64,000 nucleotides of DNA from an uncultured Elusimicrobia bacterium (GTDB lineage Bacteria > Elusimicrobiota > Elusimicrobia > 2-01-FULL-59-12). Made by a program: the position numbers and the translations under genes. The notes below the pieces were generated by a model. It made no database searches. It had not been told where the DNA came from and saw only the letters and a list, made by a program, of their open reading frames with translations. The stretch lies in contig OY969767.1 in NCBI GenBank assembly GCA_963702895.1, forward strand, positions 2,400,001-2,464,000. Direction: 5' to 3'. Positions within the stretch are counted from its first letter, which is position 1. Each line of letters opens with the position of its first letter. Of the stretch, positions 53,467 to 57,731 are shown piece after piece.

Positions 53467-53810
53467 TGAAACAGGTGGTCTAATTTCTCTGGGGGGCGGG
53501 CGATGACGGCCCGATCCCCCAACACCACGACGGGGCGCTCGATCAGGATTGGGTTTTCATGGAGAACTTTGATCCACTCGGCACGTGAAAGGTCTTTATC
53601 CGCGAATTTCTCTTGGTAGAGCGGCTCTTTCTTCCTCAGAAGCATCTGAGGCTCAAGCTTGAGTTTCTTCAAGAGCGCGTCGAGTTCAGCAAGAGAAGGC
53701 GGCGTTTTGAGGTACTCAATGGCTGTGATGTCGGCGCCCTTCTTCTTGAGCGCCTTCATCACTTTCTGGCAGGTGCCGCATGTCGGCTTATGGTAGAGCG
53801 TGATTTTCAT
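53463..53810 (-). CDS. ArsC/Spx family protein
   Basis: YHKPTCGTC, EYLKTPP, PILIERP, ARP. Confidence 0.88.
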   Translation of the reverse strand: MKITLYHKPTCGTCQKVMKALKKKGADITAIEYLKTPPSLAELDALLKKLKLEPQMLLRKKEPLYQEKFADKDLSRAEWIKVLHENPILIERPVVVLGDRAVIARPPEKLDHLFQ

Positions 53811-53849
53811 GGGTCTTATTGTGACAAATTTTATTGTAGGATCAACTCT

Positions 53850-54029
53850 GTGATTCATCGAATTCTGGCAACGACGGCGGTCTGGAGTATCGCCTCGGTT
53901 GTGACGATGCGGCTGCGCCACCCGATGGTGGGGCTCACGCTGGGAGCGCTGGCTGCTTATCTAACCTTCCTCATCTGGACCCCGCGGCATCCGAAATTAC
54001 CCTACGACTCCAATGGAGGATCAAACTAA
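53850..54029 (+). CDS. Small membrane protein, about 59 aa
   Basis: GTG start, two hydrophobic stretches, stop overlaps the next ATG. Confidence 0.45.
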   Translation: MIHRILATTAVWSIASVVTMRLRHPMVGLTLGALAAYLTFLIWTPRHPKLPYDSNGGSN

Positions 54030-54946
54030 TGTGGTTTACGCTGGCTGTCATTTTCGTTGTCATCATGATGGCGCTCGGATACAAGACTTGGTTTTCTCCA
54101 CGAGAACAACTCTTTCACACGGATGTTTTCATTCGCAGCCTCGCCAAATACTTCGCCATCGGGCTTTCGGTGGCTCTCTTGGCGACCTTCATCACAGATT
54201 CTGTTGTGATCGTCCCAGCCGGCAATCGAGGGGTGGTCTTTGACCGATTTAAAGGGGTGCGGCCCGTTTCGCTCAATGAAGGCCTCAATATGATCCTGCC
54301 TATTGTTCAAGATGCGACGCTTTTTGAGGTGCGTGTCCAAAAGGTGGAGTTTGACGCAACAGCCGCCTCCAAAGACCTCCAAAGCGTGCGCACCAAAATC
54401 GCGCTCAACTTCCACCCGATCCCGGAGCAGGTCCCGGAAATCTATCGTGCCTACGGGCTTGGCTACACAGAAAAGATTGTGCATCCCGCTGTTCAGGAAG
54501 CCGTGAAATCCGTCACCGCCCGCTACACCGCCGAGGAACTGATCACGCGGCGCGAAGAGGTCAAGGGCCATATTCACGACCAGCTGGTCAGGCATGTGGG
54601 GGCGGCGAACTTAAAACTCGTGGAAACCTACATTACGGATTTTGAATTCTCATCGGAATTCGCGCACGCGATTGAGGCCAAGCAAGTGGCCGAGCAGCAG
54701 GCCTTCAAGGCCAGGCGCGACTTAGACAGAATTAAGATTGAGGCGGAGCAGCGTATCGCCCAAGCACGCGCTGAGGCGGAGGGTCTCAAGATGCAACGGG
54801 AAGCGATCACCCCGCAGCTGATTGAACTTCGGAAAATCGACGCCCAGAAACTCGCCATTGAGAAGTGGGATGGCCGCATGCCCCAAGTCATCATGGGACA
54901 GGGTTCTACCCCCTTCATCGACGTTAATCGTTTTATCCAAAAATAG
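54029..54946 (+). CDS. Prohibitin/SPFH family protein
   Basis: VPAGNRGVVF, ASKDLQ, YTAEELITRR, AIEAKQVAEQ. Confidence 0.92.
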   Translation: MWFTLAVIFVVIMMALGYKTWFSPREQLFHTDVFIRSLAKYFAIGLSVALLATFITDSVVIVPAGNRGVVFDRFKGVRPVSLNEGLNMILPIVQDATLFEVRVQKVEFDATAASKDLQSVRTKIALNFHPIPEQVPEIYRAYGLGYTEKIVHPAVQEAVKSVTARYTAEELITRREEVKGHIHDQLVRHVGAANLKLVETYITDFEFSSEFAHAIEAKQVAEQQAFKARRDLDRIKIEAEQRIAQARAEAEGLKMQREAITPQLIELRKIDAQKLAIEKWDGRMPQVIMGQGSTPFIDVNRFIQK

Positions 54947-54986
54947 CGAAAACTTCGTTCACGAAACGGCCGTGGAAGGCGCTGAG

Positions 54987-55472
54987 CTCCCGGACCTGGG
55001 CGCCGCACGACCGGCGCTCGCCCGACTATAGTGTGTCGGGTGAACCTAGACGAAGTGCAAAACTCCCGGACTAGGATTCGAGCGCCACACTTCGGGCGCT
55101 CGCCCGACTGTTGTGTGTCGGGTGAACCTAGACGAAGTGCAAAACTCCCGGACTAGGATTCGAGCGCCACACTTCGGGCGCTCGCCCGACTGTTGTGTGT
55201 CGGGTGAACCTAGACGAAGTGCAAAACTCCCGGACTAGGATTCGAGCGCCACACTTCGGGCGCTCGCCCGACTGTTGTGTGTCGGGCGAACCTAGACGAA
55301 GTGCAAAACTCCCGGACTAGGATTCGAGCGCCACACTTCGGGCGCTCGCCCGACTGTTGTGTGTCGGGCGAACCTAGACGAAGTGCAAAACTCCCGGACT
55401 AGGATTCGAGCGCCACACTTCGGGCGCTCGCCCGACTGTTGTGTGTCGGGCGAACCTAGACGAAGTGCAAAA
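54987..55472 (-). repeat. 82-bp tandem array of tRNA-Gln 3'-end-derived units (5 full, 1 degenerate)
   Basis: gaagtgcaaaactcccgg recurs at 55052, 55134, 55216, 55298, 55380 and 55462; the last copy runs into the tRNA. Confidence 0.97.
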
Positions 55473-55543
55473 CTCCCGGACTAGGATTCGAACCTAGACT
55501 AAGGGATTCAGAGTCCCTCGTGCTACCGTTACACAATCCGGGA
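55473..55543 (-). tRNA. tRNA-Gln (CTG)
   Basis: TCCCGGA acceptor, AGGGA-CTCTGAA-TCCCT anticodon arm, CTAGG-TTCGAAT-CCTAG T arm; U1-A72; CCA not encoded. Confidence 0.97.
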
Positions 55544-55727
55544 GTTTTGCACTCCATATGCCAGAGTCCCTCGTGCTACCTAACCTTTATCCTTCGACTC
55601 CGCACGCCCTGAGCGCAATCGAAGGACTCGTTCCGCTTAGGATGGTTCGGCTCGTATCACTGATGGTGAGCGAGGTCGCCAAACATCTGGCGACCGAGTC
55701 GAACCAGACCCTCCGAAAGCATGACTC

Positions 55728-56144
55728 TTATGGTTTGATGATTTCCGGTCCTTTGCTCACGCCGGGCGGGATGATTATATCAGGGCCTTTTTTCTCCGTC
55801 GCCTTTTCGGCGGACGCCTCGGACTTGCGGACTTCGTCAGCAAAGTTGAGCTCCAGGTCGGACACCAGGTTGTCGAGCATCTCCTGTTCTTTGACGCTCA
55901 AGTTTCCTTCCGTCTTTTCCTGAAGCATGCGCAAGAACTCAATCGAGATGCGGGCCTGATCGATGTCCTTTTCGATCTTCTGGGTCACCGGATGGGGCAC
56001 TTTCCCCAGCTGCGCCCAGGCGGCAGACCCCAAGGACATCACCAGCGTCAAAAACCGGTAATCGTCCACAACGCTATCAGGCGGACGAGCGCCTGTTGTG
56101 TGGCGCTCGGCTTCTCCTGGCATTTCAATTTTTTCTTCTGACAC
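55728..56144 (-). CDS. DUF1844 family protein
   Basis: LGKVPHP...ARISIEFLRMLQEKTEGNL...L.LNF; GTG after AGGAGG. Confidence 0.85.
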   Translation of the reverse strand: MSEEKIEMPGEAERHTTGARPPDSVVDDYRFLTLVMSLGSAAWAQLGKVPHPVTQKIEKDIDQARISIEFLRMLQEKTEGNLSVKEQEMLDNLVSDLELNFADEVRKSEASAEKATEKKGPDIIIPPGVSKGPEIIKP

Positions 56145-56160
56145 AACCACCCTCCTTGCC

Positions 56161-56244
56161 GTCACCCCAGCGGATTGTGAGCCGGGGTCCATCGTTATTG
56201 GCGTAGGCATGATGGATCCCCCACTTACAGCCGTGGGGGATGAC
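56161..56244. repeat. Cloverleaf palindromic repeat (GTCAYCCC family)
   Basis: gtcaccccagc..gccggggtccatc..gatggatcccc..gggggatgac. Confidence 0.85.
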
Positions 56245-56246
56245 AC

Positions 56247-57731
56247 CTAGATTACTTTTGCCTGCAAAAGTTGTTGGGCCTTCTTAATACGCTCGAGCGT
56301 GCGTTTCTTTCCTAAAAATTCCACCATGTGCCAAAGGCTTGGCCCTTCCGTCCGCCCGGACACGCAAACGCGCAAGGGATGAAACACGGCACCGTTCTTG
56401 ACCCCTTTATCTTTGGCCAAGGTCTTGCATAGGTTCTCAATGCCCGGCACGTCAAAGGGCTCAAGCGCCGCCAGGCGCTTGACAAGTTCTTCGATGATCC
56501 CCGCAGCACCCTCGGCGCGAAGCACTTTGCCCACCGCCTCCTCTCGATACTCGTAATCATCCCAGAGAAGAAAATCCGTGAGCTTCGGAACATCCGAGAG
56601 CAGCTTGACTTTTTCGAGCTCGAGGGCGACCGCTGCCTCATAAGTGGACGCAGGCACAGCGGATATGTCTTTGCCCTTGTAGAAGGGTTCCGCCAGGGCA
56701 GCCAGTTCCCGAGCGGACGTTTTGCGGATGTATTCGCCGTTCATCCACAAAAGCTTCGTGGGATCAAAGGTCGCGGCGCTTTTGCCGCAGCGTTCAATCT
56801 GAAATTTTTCCACCATCTCTTGCTGCGTGAACAGCTGCTGGCTGTCTTCGGTCCCCCAGCCAAGAAGAGCGAGATAATTCAGCAGCGCGTTCGGGAGATA
56901 CCCCGCGTCCCGGTACTCCGTGACAGAGGTCGCGCCATGCCGCTTGGAGAGCCGGGCGCCATCGGAACCCAGGATCATCGCCAGATGCGCAAATTGTGGC
57001 ACCTGCCAGCCCAGCGCCTCGTAAACGAGCATCTGCCGCGGCGTGTTGGAGAGGTGGTCATCGCCGCGGATCACATGGCTGATCTTCATGAGATGGTCGT
57101 CCACCACGCAAGCGAAGTTGTAGGTCGGCACCCCCGTCGACTTGAGGACCACGAAATCTTCCATGAGAGCATTCTCAAAAACTTTGACGCCATGGATGAG
57201 ATCCGTAAAGCGCGTCTCGCCCACATGCGGGGTCTTAAAACGGATGGATTTCTTCCGCCCCTGGGCTTCCTTGGCTTTTCGCTCATCAGCGCTCAGGTTG
57301 CGGCACCTGCCGTCATACTTGGGAGGCCTTTTGGCAAGGAGCGCGAGCTCCCGCATTTTCTCCACTTCTTCTGGAGTGCAGTAACAGGGATAGGCAAACC
57401 CCTTCTTCAGCAGCTCGTCGCACGCGGCCCAATAGCCTGCCAGGCGTTGCATCTGATAGTAGGGACCATAGTCGCCCTTCACTCCTCTGCCATCGGCGGT
57501 TGGCCCTTCGTCCCAATCGAGGCCCAGCCACTTCATGGACTCGAGGATCCCGTTGACAGACTCATCTGTGGAGCGCACTTCATCGGTATCTTCAATCCGA
57601 AGAATGAACGTCCCCTGATGGTGACGGGCAAAGAGCCAGTTAAACAGGGCTGTACGCGCCCCGCCGATATGGAGGAAACCCGTGGGCGAAGGCGCAAACC
57701 GGACGCGGATAGACGGTTTATCCATAGACAT
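56247..57731 (-). CDS. gltX: Glutamate--tRNA ligase
   Basis: RFAPSPTGFLHIGG, RIEDTD, HVIRGDDH, LSKR. Confidence 0.97.
   Translation of the reverse strand: MSMDKPSIRVRFAPSPTGFLHIGGARTALFNWLFARHHQGTFILRIEDTDEVRSTDESVNGILESMKWLGLDWDEGPTADGRGVKGDYGPYYQMQRLAGYWAACDELLKKGFAYPCYCTPEEVEKMRELALLAKRPPKYDGRCRNLSADERKAKEAQGRKKSIRFKTPHVGETRFTDLIHGVKVFENALMEDFVVLKSTGVPTYNFACVVDDHLMKISHVIRGDDHLSNTPRQMLVYEALGWQVPQFAHLAMILGSDGARLSKRHGATSVTEYRDAGYLPNALLNYLALLGWGTEDSQQLFTQQEMVEKFQIERCGKSAATFDPTKLLWMNGEYIRKTSARELAALAEPFYKGKDISAVPASTYEAAVALELEKVKLLSDVPKLTDFLLWDDYEYREEAVGKVLRAEGAAGIIEELVKRLAALEPFDVPGIENLCKTLAKDKGVKNGAVFHPLRVCVSGRTEGPSLWHMVEFLGKKRTLERIKKAQQLLQAKVI

Follow-up and report, generated by a model that had tools for sequence, protein, structure and literature searches.

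Tandem copies of a tRNA-Gln 3′ end with a hairpin dyad in the T-loop, and a related repeat family in discarded tRNA 3′ ends, in the chromosome of an Elusimicrobia bacterium

The tRNA-Gln locus and its 82-nt array

We analyzed a 64,000-nt window of the chromosome of an uncultured Elusimicrobia bacterium (positions 2,400,001 to 2,464,000 of contig OY969767.1, assembly GCA_963702895.1; G000:C1:2400001-2464000, where G000 is the source genome, assembled as a single 2.72-Mb contig, C1, and G001 and the like are related genomes). The sole tRNA gene that ARAGORN finds in this window, tRNA-Gln(CTG), is followed directly downstream by a tandem array of 82-nt units, each of which repeats the 3′ part of the tRNA with two abutting hairpins (hereafter the dyad) inside the T-loop. 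An original prediction, made from the letters alone, had described a tRNA-Gln gene followed by an array of its own 3′ end, and this description is borne out by ARAGORN, Rfam, Tandem Repeats Finder (TRF) and exact self-copies of the tRNA. The features are listed below.

55472..55544, minus strand: working tRNA-Gln(CTG) gene (ARAGORN; Rfam tRNA, 62.8 bits); CCA is not encoded
55545..55553, minus strand: leader whose pairing with the trailer extends the acceptor stem, within a 17-nt inverted repeat
55562..55580, minus strand: exact 19-nt copy of tRNA positions 18-36, a self-copy 18-36 nt upstream of the tRNA-Gln gene
55390-55471, 55308-55389, 55226-55307, 55144-55225 and 55062-55143, minus strand: five near-identical 82-nt units (TRF; exact tRNA self-copies)
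55325..55373, minus strand: two-hairpin dyad of unit 2 (hairpin-pair scan; row 1 of alignment A1)
55407-55455, 55243-55291, 55161-55207 and 55079-55125, minus strand: dyads in the other units (hairpin-pair scan)
54987..55061, minus strand: sixth, degenerate unit, with both loops altered, the 3′ half of the T-loop lost and CCGGGAG kept
54978..54986, minus strand: nine bases past the last CCGGGAG, matching the native tRNA-Gln trailer of the same-genus genome G003 at 8 of 9 positions

The array spans 55013-55491 in TRF (period 82, 5.8 copies, 99% matches, score 923), and the tRNA is the only Rfam match within 53500-57000 (62.8 bits; E up to 1). On the tRNA strand, a unit consists of a 12-nt trailer, tRNA positions 46-56 (the 5′ strand of the T stem and TTCG), two abutting hairpins with an 8-nt loop each, and tRNA positions 54-73 (CGAAT, the 3′ strand of the T stem and CCGGGAG); positions 46-56 and 54-85 of the tRNA recur in the array as exact copies. 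The 44-nt insert that had been placed at the T-loop is present, inside GGTTCR^ANTCC, but its exact site is ambiguous by 2 nt, since CG stands on both sides. Variation is polarized along the array as predicted, with TTCG in the three proximal units and TTCA in the three distal ones. The sixth unit (89-91% identical to the other units) had been thought to change both loops and to keep both stems; both loops are indeed changed, but the outer pair of hairpin 2 is mismatched, and the 3′ half of the T-loop is also gone. The units hold only tRNA positions 46-73, and not the two acceptor strands, D arm and anticodon arm of a cloverleaf. No open reading frame (ORF) of at least 50 aa was found across the array, in agreement with the earlier view that it is probably non-coding.

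The leader and 5′ acceptor strand of the working gene (55537-55553) form a 17-nt inverted repeat with 55464-55480 and with five further copies, all 100% complementary, so that all six acceptor 3′ strands with their trailers can pair with them. The predicted RNA fold of the tRNA and the first unit has a free energy of -85.1 kcal/mol (z -7.55), in which the acceptor stem is extended by the leader-trailer pairing and the unit forms a three-way junction. The complementarity that had been noticed between a hairpin loop and the spacer between units is there as well: it is 7 nt long, would allow a pseudoknot and is used in the DNA minimum-energy fold of the tRNA strand at this single locus. We put its odds by chance, which the invariant GTG of the loop motif raises, at roughly 1-2%. 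A leader complementary to the trailer over at least 6 contiguous pairs occurs in 14 of the 48 tRNAs of the genome (with leaders reassigned among the tRNAs, the mean is 1.8 and the maximum 6). Relatives retain the pairing seen at tRNA-Gln (55545-55553 with 55464-55471), although their sequences differ. Where the upstream 5′ tRNA fragment meets the new leader, two different tRNAs have the short string GCATATG, namely tRNA-Gln (window 55553-55561) and tRNA-Ala(CGC) (upstream of the gene, G000:C1 817351); it may be a junction signature.

A promoter scan found nothing. Five terminator-like matches on the plus strand are not terminators but reflect another way of pairing where the two hairpins of a unit meet, and no terminator-like site was found between the units on the tRNA strand. 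No RNA run in the search contained more than 0.06 of the sampled words, a result that has no bearing on transcription. In RNA run X15 the tRNA body only was covered, and because its contigs continue into unlike sequence they must come from other organisms. The neighboring genes at the locus encode DsbD, an ArsC-family protein, an SPFH protein, DUF1844 and GluRS. The ArsC-family gene lies about 22 nt after tRNA-Gln in G003; because the array and an opposite-strand SPFH/Band 7 gene intervene here (about 1.55 kb, window 53922-55471), the downstream flank of tRNA-Gln is a variable spot.

A dyad repeat family in tRNA 3′ stubs

The genome has 48 tRNAs and one tmRNA (ARAGORN). Two units were compared with all of it by BLAST, giving 34 matches, 30 of them outside the array. 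A genome-wide scan for hairpin pairs found 28 dyads with a 22-nt loop spacing. Twenty-seven of these lie up to 570 nt downstream of a tRNA and on its strand, behind 16 of the 48 tRNA genes, and only about 1.4% of the genome is within such a distance of a tRNA; the 28th is 36 nt upstream of tRNA-Asn, in an older broken copy. GTTC stands directly before hairpin 1 in all 21 distinct dyad copies. After hairpin 2 come the 3′ half of the T-loop, the T stem and the acceptor strand of the local tRNA itself in 20 of the 21 copies, the copy at Glu(CTC) being without them. The dyads sit in discarded 3′ ends of tRNAs (hereafter stubs), and never in working tRNA genes. The search for the insert at other tRNAs, which had been suggested as a check, is therefore positive both here (stubs behind 16 of 48 genes) and in relatives. 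The suggestion that the array is the footprint of a tiny T-loop-targeting element that later amplified is upheld for the most part, but with two amendments: the dyad occupies stubs and not working genes, and the stubs seem to be the product of a separate process, the overwriting of tRNA genes, in which small GIY-YIG nuclease genes are involved at other loci.

Across the 21 distinct copies, all 294 cells over 14 base pairs are paired, a figure that holds in part by construction because the aligned copies were chosen by a scan demanding at least 5 paired bases per hairpin. Seven of the 14 pairs have changed on both sides (53 cells); none of 500 shuffles reaches such pairing, and the paired share in slid controls never exceeds 44% of cells. 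Hairpin 1 has A, A, C and C at its invariant loop positions, and hairpin 2 has the mirror image of these, G, G, T and T. A model of the dyad (R1) scores 72-79 bits per Gln unit and scores on both strands (78.8 and 65.4 bits), and the two DNA strands of a unit fold alike (-18.9 and -19.6 kcal/mol). This two-fold strand symmetry points to an element at the level of DNA.

The number of units varies from 1 to 6 between tRNAs, and Gln, Phe, Asn, Gly and Val all have tandem arrays of tRNA segments. Behind tRNA-Val(GAC) (G000:C1:1170936-1171695) there is a second tandem array, of five 120-nt units and a degenerate sixth, whose units contain tRNA positions 58-86 and a palindrome of heptamer repeats in place of the dyad; other hairpin repeats can therefore fill the same T-loop break. 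The stubs of Tyr and Leu have unrelated hairpin fillers at the same place. After tRNA-Ala(TGC), Thr(GGT) and Arg(GCG) there are pseudo-tRNA copies, and in several stubs whose sequence starts within the D loop one hairpin of the dyad motif takes the place of the anticodon arm.

Besides the T-loop dyads, the genome has dyad classes with 18-, 20- and 21-nt loop spacing. At other spacings the same hairpin motif is found within two further palindromic repeat families that are not near tRNAs, and with 18- or 21-nt spacing it also lies inside tandem 8-mer hairpin repeats, often at a GGA^TCC center (G000:C1 500731-500770, 15447-15489 and 897019-897057); repeats in this genome stack within one another. 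At least two T-loop-like copies have no adjoining annotated tRNA (C1:1099377, and a half copy at C1:2513352).

The dinucleotides at the borders and center of the dyad follow the target. A dyad in a TTCG T-loop is bounded and centered by CG, CG and CG, and one in a TTCA T-loop by CA, TG and CA; the CG version is found in 16 and the CA version in 5 of the 21 aligned copies (pair 14-35). The same rule is seen in the related genome G007 at Pro, Leu(CAG), Leu(CAA) and Glu(CTC). Each strand thus reads native dinucleotide, hairpin and complement of the dinucleotide, the central pair being common to both hairpins. Such an arrangement would be expected if the 3′ ends of a break with a 2-nt stagger were each extended by a hairpin and then joined through the 2 nt. 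It could also arise if the dyad were copied from one T-loop to another by break repair using T-loop homology. The target-matched dinucleotides offer a concrete and testable clue to the mechanism of dyad insertion.

Stubs as probable displaced 3′ ends, and the dyad in relatives

An exact copy of at least 10 nt of the tRNA's own 3′ part lies within 700 nt downstream of 26 of the 48 tRNAs, and a copy of the own 5′ part lies upstream of 24 of the 48. The working tRNA-Gln(CTG) is 100% identical over 72 nt to the gene of G003, but its leader and trailer, which are complementary to each other, are unlike those of G003, and it is the distal stub that is followed by a G003-like trailer. At Gly(CCC), the distal stub ends like the working allele of G003, CCA included, and the working gene of G000 lacks CCA and differs in its T stem. 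Similarly, the working T stem of Arg(CCG) in G007 is unlike that of the stub, which keeps the version functional in G000. Because the distal Gln stub carries the trailer of a congener and Gly(CCC) and Arg(CCG) are alike in this respect, we read the stubs as native 3′ ends that were probably pushed aside when an incoming copy overwrote the gene. A possible donor was sought with a 21-nt pattern of the new junction between tRNA and trailer, which has no match in a collection of genome contigs; one match in a collection of metagenome contigs, with no tRNA and in an unrelated context, was taken as chance.

In a survey with model R1, the dyad was found in 13 of 100 other genomes of the class. These are all 10 from the family of the window and 3 of the 12 from one other family; the remaining 78 gave none. 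The survey covered sampled genomes, in which not found does not mean absent. In G001, G005 and G007, 13 dyads were located in 12 of 21 scanned loci, with a same-strand tRNA ending 3-213 nt upstream and the 3′ end of that tRNA after the dyad. Neither array nor dyad is present at 13 tRNA-Gln(CTG) loci of 12 related genomes (among them the same-genus G003, and G002). Because it is absent at all 13 related loci examined, the Gln array is apparently recent. In G022 and G029, which belong to other families, plain copies of the tRNA-Gln 3′ end with another filler lie downstream of the gene.

Small GIY-YIG nuclease genes near tRNAs

A PF01541 search found UvrC and 8 small GIY-YIG ORFs in the genome, to which one further remnant can be added. 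Six of these nine small genes or remnants are within 350 nt of tRNAs, at Gln(TTG), Ala(GGC), the Ile/Ala spacer of an rRNA operon, Arg/Lys and, in two cases, Asn. The ORF next to Ala(GGC) has 79 aa. Downstream of tRNA-Asn are two units of 312-316 nt, each composed of trailer, an 86-aa GIY-YIG ORF, tRNA positions 43-57, the dyad, and positions 56-74 with trailer; the final codons of the ORF cross the stub and hairpin 1, and its stop lies in the loop of hairpin 2. Because the two ORF bodies have diverged (only about 60% identical) and their last ~100 nt are nearly the same (97-100% identical), the sequences suggest two separate arrivals whose ends were homogenized. In the same-genus genome G001, a 72-aa GIY-YIG ORF lies between the 3′ end of Gly(CCC) and a dyad-bearing stub; this tRNA is followed here by two gene-less 82-nt units and is plain in G003, G004 and G009. 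The ORF in the rRNA operon spacer (G000:C1:580617-580811, L129) is broken by an in-frame TGA; it starts 22 nt after tRNA-Ile(GAT), and its frame ends inside tRNA-Ala(TGC).

Within the window's family, 11 of 31 small GIY-YIG matches with a retrieved locus have a same-strand tRNA within 600 nt. A search across phyla with a 3-sequence alignment of the Ala(GGC)-type nuclease gave relatives in several phyla, with a tRNA within 300 nt at 19 of 27 loci, mostly 2-18 nt away, and with partial tRNA copies, of positions 1-25 before the ORF or 44-74 after it. In other phyla, breakpoints beside nuclease genes concentrate at the two edges of the anticodon arm, tRNA positions 25/26 and 43/44. NCBIfam assigned the small nucleases to no named family, and their N-termini match a group I intron endonuclease model weakly (19-22 bits against a cut-off of 56).

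Enzymes that move short palindromes were also considered. Neither a REP-associated tyrosine transposase (RAYT; REP, repetitive extragenic palindromic sequence) nor an IS200/IS605 enzyme qualifies as mover of the dyad, with only a Y1 remnant in the genome, no repeats beside the Y1_Tnp genes of relatives and no TnpB. The remnant, the sole one in G000, encodes 84 aa of an IS200-like Y1 transposase (G000:C1:390674-390928; L011:1456-1710; 25.6 bits, with the HxH motif), and relatives carry 0-6 Y1_Tnp genes that are longer. Miniature elements derived from IS200/IS605 (palindrome-associated transposable elements, PATE) were rejected likewise, there being no TnpA or TnpB beyond the Y1 remnant and the hairpins being mirror images rather than parallel.

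Origin of the array and alternative explanations

We consider it somewhat more probable than all alternatives together (roughly 0.55) that the array is a non-coding DNA scar, and not a set of tRNA-like genes, produced by overwriting of the tRNA gene, settlement of a dyad in the T-loop of the stub and unequal recombination. In the first step, which has left partial traces, an incoming copy with its own leader and trailer would have overwritten the resident tRNA-Gln. The upstream copy of positions 18-36 (55562-55580) may be what is left of the 5′ part of the older gene. At the distal limit of the array, the degenerate sixth unit, a 3′ stub followed by the old trailer, may be the ancestral 3′ end in its displaced position. 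A dyad of a lineage-specific, strand-symmetric, REP-like family now occupies the T-loop of the stub between GGTTCR and ANTCC, where it would have settled in a second step. Unequal homologous recombination between direct repeats of 20-32 nt, one being the 3′ end of the tRNA with its trailer and the other the corresponding stretch of the stub, could then have multiplied the 82-nt segment, and the unit at the edge would have decayed. Judging from other loci, the process may have been driven by double-strand breaks made by small GIY-YIG nucleases such as those encoded at the same junction of other tRNAs, in parallel with the phage nuclease SegB. For the Gln array, a nuclease trigger is plausible by analogy with these loci, though less likely than not. 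A wider proposal is more tentative, and we regard it as doubtful: chromosomes of Elusimicrobiota, of candidate phyla radiation (CPR) groups and of others may harbor undescribed selfish cassettes, in which tiny GIY-YIG nucleases would break tRNA genes, the cassette would heal the break with a replacement tRNA part, and the dyad, by destroying GGTTCRANTCC, would render the stub immune and spread between stubs through 11-nt T-loop homology, the Gln array being a frozen nuclease-triggered amplification.

Several observations weigh against this account. The Gln array and its surroundings contain neither a GIY-YIG gene nor a remnant of one, and the closest significant match by tblastn is far outside the window. 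The small nucleases have only 78-100 aa and no evident DNA-binding domain, and their specificity for the T-loop is therefore an assumption. In other phyla, the T-loop of a stub beside a nuclease gene is often intact, which means that these cassettes do not require the dyad; because the T-loop is intact at several of these loci, the dyad appears to be a secondary settler and not a part of the nuclease cassette. No enzyme that moves the dyad was identified in the genome: none of the 12 Y1_Tnp loci of the family adjoins dyads (one has a single hairpin 1.4 kb away), and PF07282 (TnpB) has no match in the genome. Stem variants are often common to the dyads that different genera have at a given tRNA, which could reflect selection for function and not neutral persistence. 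The partly built-in pairing figure given above belongs on the same side.

Those shared stem variants are the main point in favor of a functional RNA, in which the tRNA and the array would be co-transcribed and the units would serve as a tRNA-mimic small RNA, as a processing or stability signal, or as a decoy for enzymes of the T arm. The strong predicted fold of tRNA and first unit, a three-way junction with a free 3′ acceptor strand, would suit such a role, as would the preservation of both hairpins with compensatory changes in 21 copies and the position of the units directly downstream on the tRNA strand with no terminator-like site between them. However, the element is alike on both strands, as fits a DNA-level feature, the array is absent in same-genus genomes, the copy number ranges from 1 to 6 between tRNAs, and unrelated hairpin fillers stand at the same place in the stubs of Val(GAC), Tyr and Leu. 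Template switching, moreover, can produce compensatory change in DNA palindromes without selection. We hold a functional RNA to be unlikely. Nearly as much can be said of a plain variable number tandem repeat (VNTR), to which we grant a low but not negligible chance: a 38-nt tRNA 3′ segment would have been duplicated by slippage at a 2-nt microhomology, a REP-like dyad would have landed in it through a RAYT-type enzyme acting in trans, and the array would have grown by slippage with neither nuclease nor overwriting. The junction between units does show a 2-nt microhomology, relatives have 0-6 Y1_Tnp genes, and insertion of REP dimers in palindromes is documented (PMC3733652). Slippage would not explain why the trailer of the distal stub is unlike that of the working gene and matches the native trailer of a congener, why the leader of the working gene also differs from the congener's and a 5′ fragment lies upstream, or why about half of the tRNAs have oriented fragments (26/48 downstream, 24/48 upstream), and no adjacency of REP and RAYT was found.

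Integrases that target tRNAs classically leave the native 3′ end displaced downstream of a rebuilt gene. The array could consist of scars of small tyrosine-integrase elements with an att site in the T-loop that integrated and decayed repeatedly, with the hairpins as element ends. At several tRNAs the repeated block does cover the stretch between the T-loop and a point about 12 nt beyond the 3′ end, and the genome has 4 tyrosine recombinase genes. But the window has no integrase, the nearest PF00589 match being ~61 kb away, and neither a tyrosine nor a serine integrase gene adjoins the array as it would in an island of this type; the units are only 82 nt long, and those that bear genes hold a GIY-YIG nuclease instead. 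The stubs also keep the 5′ strand of the T stem, which an att crossover in the T-loop would not duplicate. This origin is improbable in our view. Least probable of all, to the point of being close to dismissed, is an assembly artefact such as a collapsed or expanded repeat or a chimera. Short-read contigs do break inside the array, and the unit count is as assembled. Yet the genome is a single 2.72-Mb contig, similar arrays occur at the Phe, Asn, Gly and Val tRNAs, and one DNA run, which may be the source sample, yielded an exact 112-nt contig over more than one unit and an exact 251-nt contig over the distal junction. Another DNA run, X3, yielded nothing.

This organization bears on how such genomes are read. 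Genes for tRNAs are among the most conserved cellular DNA, yet about half of those here are flanked by oriented fragments of themselves, and a small repeat has become a specialist of T-loops in the pieces left over. Annotation of tRNAs and small RNAs can be misled by stubs and dyads, which can also break short-read assemblies at tRNA loci and be mistaken for att scars of integrases. If the link to the nucleases is true, it would explain the overwriting of tRNA genes, the turnover of their leaders and trailers and the adjoining tandem arrays.

Comparison with known systems

Tandem repeats behind a tRNA gene are known from E. coli tyrT, where downstream 178-bp units begin with the tRNA 3′ end. 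Like the Gln array, they lie directly downstream of the tRNA and contain its 3′ terminal bases in every unit; unlike it, they have a longer unit and are not known to have a T arm with a structured insert or a dispersed family at other tRNAs. Islands of tyrosine integrases use the T-loop as an att sublocation and leave a rebuilt tRNA with the native 3′ end displaced downstream. The Gln locus resembles them in its rebuilt gene, displaced native 3′ end and tandem accretion at one tRNA, but it differs in having no integrase, in the size of the units (82-316 nt across loci) and in the duplication of the 5′ strand of the T stem as well. For a structured insert in the T-loop, the original prediction knew of no precedent, and this holds for the literature searched, from which most subscription journals are missing: neither repeats specific to the T-loop nor small GIY-YIG genes linked to tRNAs on chromosomes are described there.

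The dyad itself is best compared with REP sequences, with bacterial interspersed mosaic elements (BIME) and with REPINs. REP dimers are pairs of hairpins that are able to nest in palindromes (Di Nocera et al. 2013, PMC3733652). The likeness covers short GC-rich inverted hairpin pairs 0-2 nt apart, stems that vary with compensatory changes, tens of copies per genome (here 28 T-loop dyads and the other spacing classes), a lineage-specific family and, in some families, nesting in palindromes. The dyad is unlike these repeats in that its T-loop subclass occurs only in discarded tRNA 3′ stubs and in that its outer and central dinucleotides follow the target. It also has neither a RAYT gene flanked by repeats (0/12 loci) nor the constant terminal tag GTAG or CGTC, its first four stem bases being variable (CGCC, CGAG, CGTC, CGGG, CGGT, CATC; alignment A1).

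The stubs and their arrays find a parallel in phage T4/T6. SegB is a GIY-YIG homing endonuclease encoded in tRNA clusters, which recognizes GGTTCRANTCC and leaves 2-nt 3′ overhangs (PMC2330249), and in T6 it drives recombination-dependent tandem amplification of tRNA-containing segments, with the motif RAWTSGAAC (PMC13096335); in reverse complement, this motif is the T-loop. The dyad splits exactly the motif of SegB and is flanked by a 2-nt repeat, and GIY-YIG genes lie near tRNA genes in both cases. The Gln locus shows a rebuilt gene with a displaced native flank and sequence differences, as a homing cassette would leave; a nuclease ORF is missing in and beside its repeated unit and is present at Asn here and at Gly(CCC) in G001. 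Unlike in the phage system, the elements are chromosomal here, the nucleases are bare catalytic domains of 78-100 aa with none in the Gln array, and the amplified segment is a dead stub and not a working tRNA. The likeness to SegB is functional, and by analogy only. If the nuclease link is true, these loci would represent a chromosomal counterpart of the phage SegB system.

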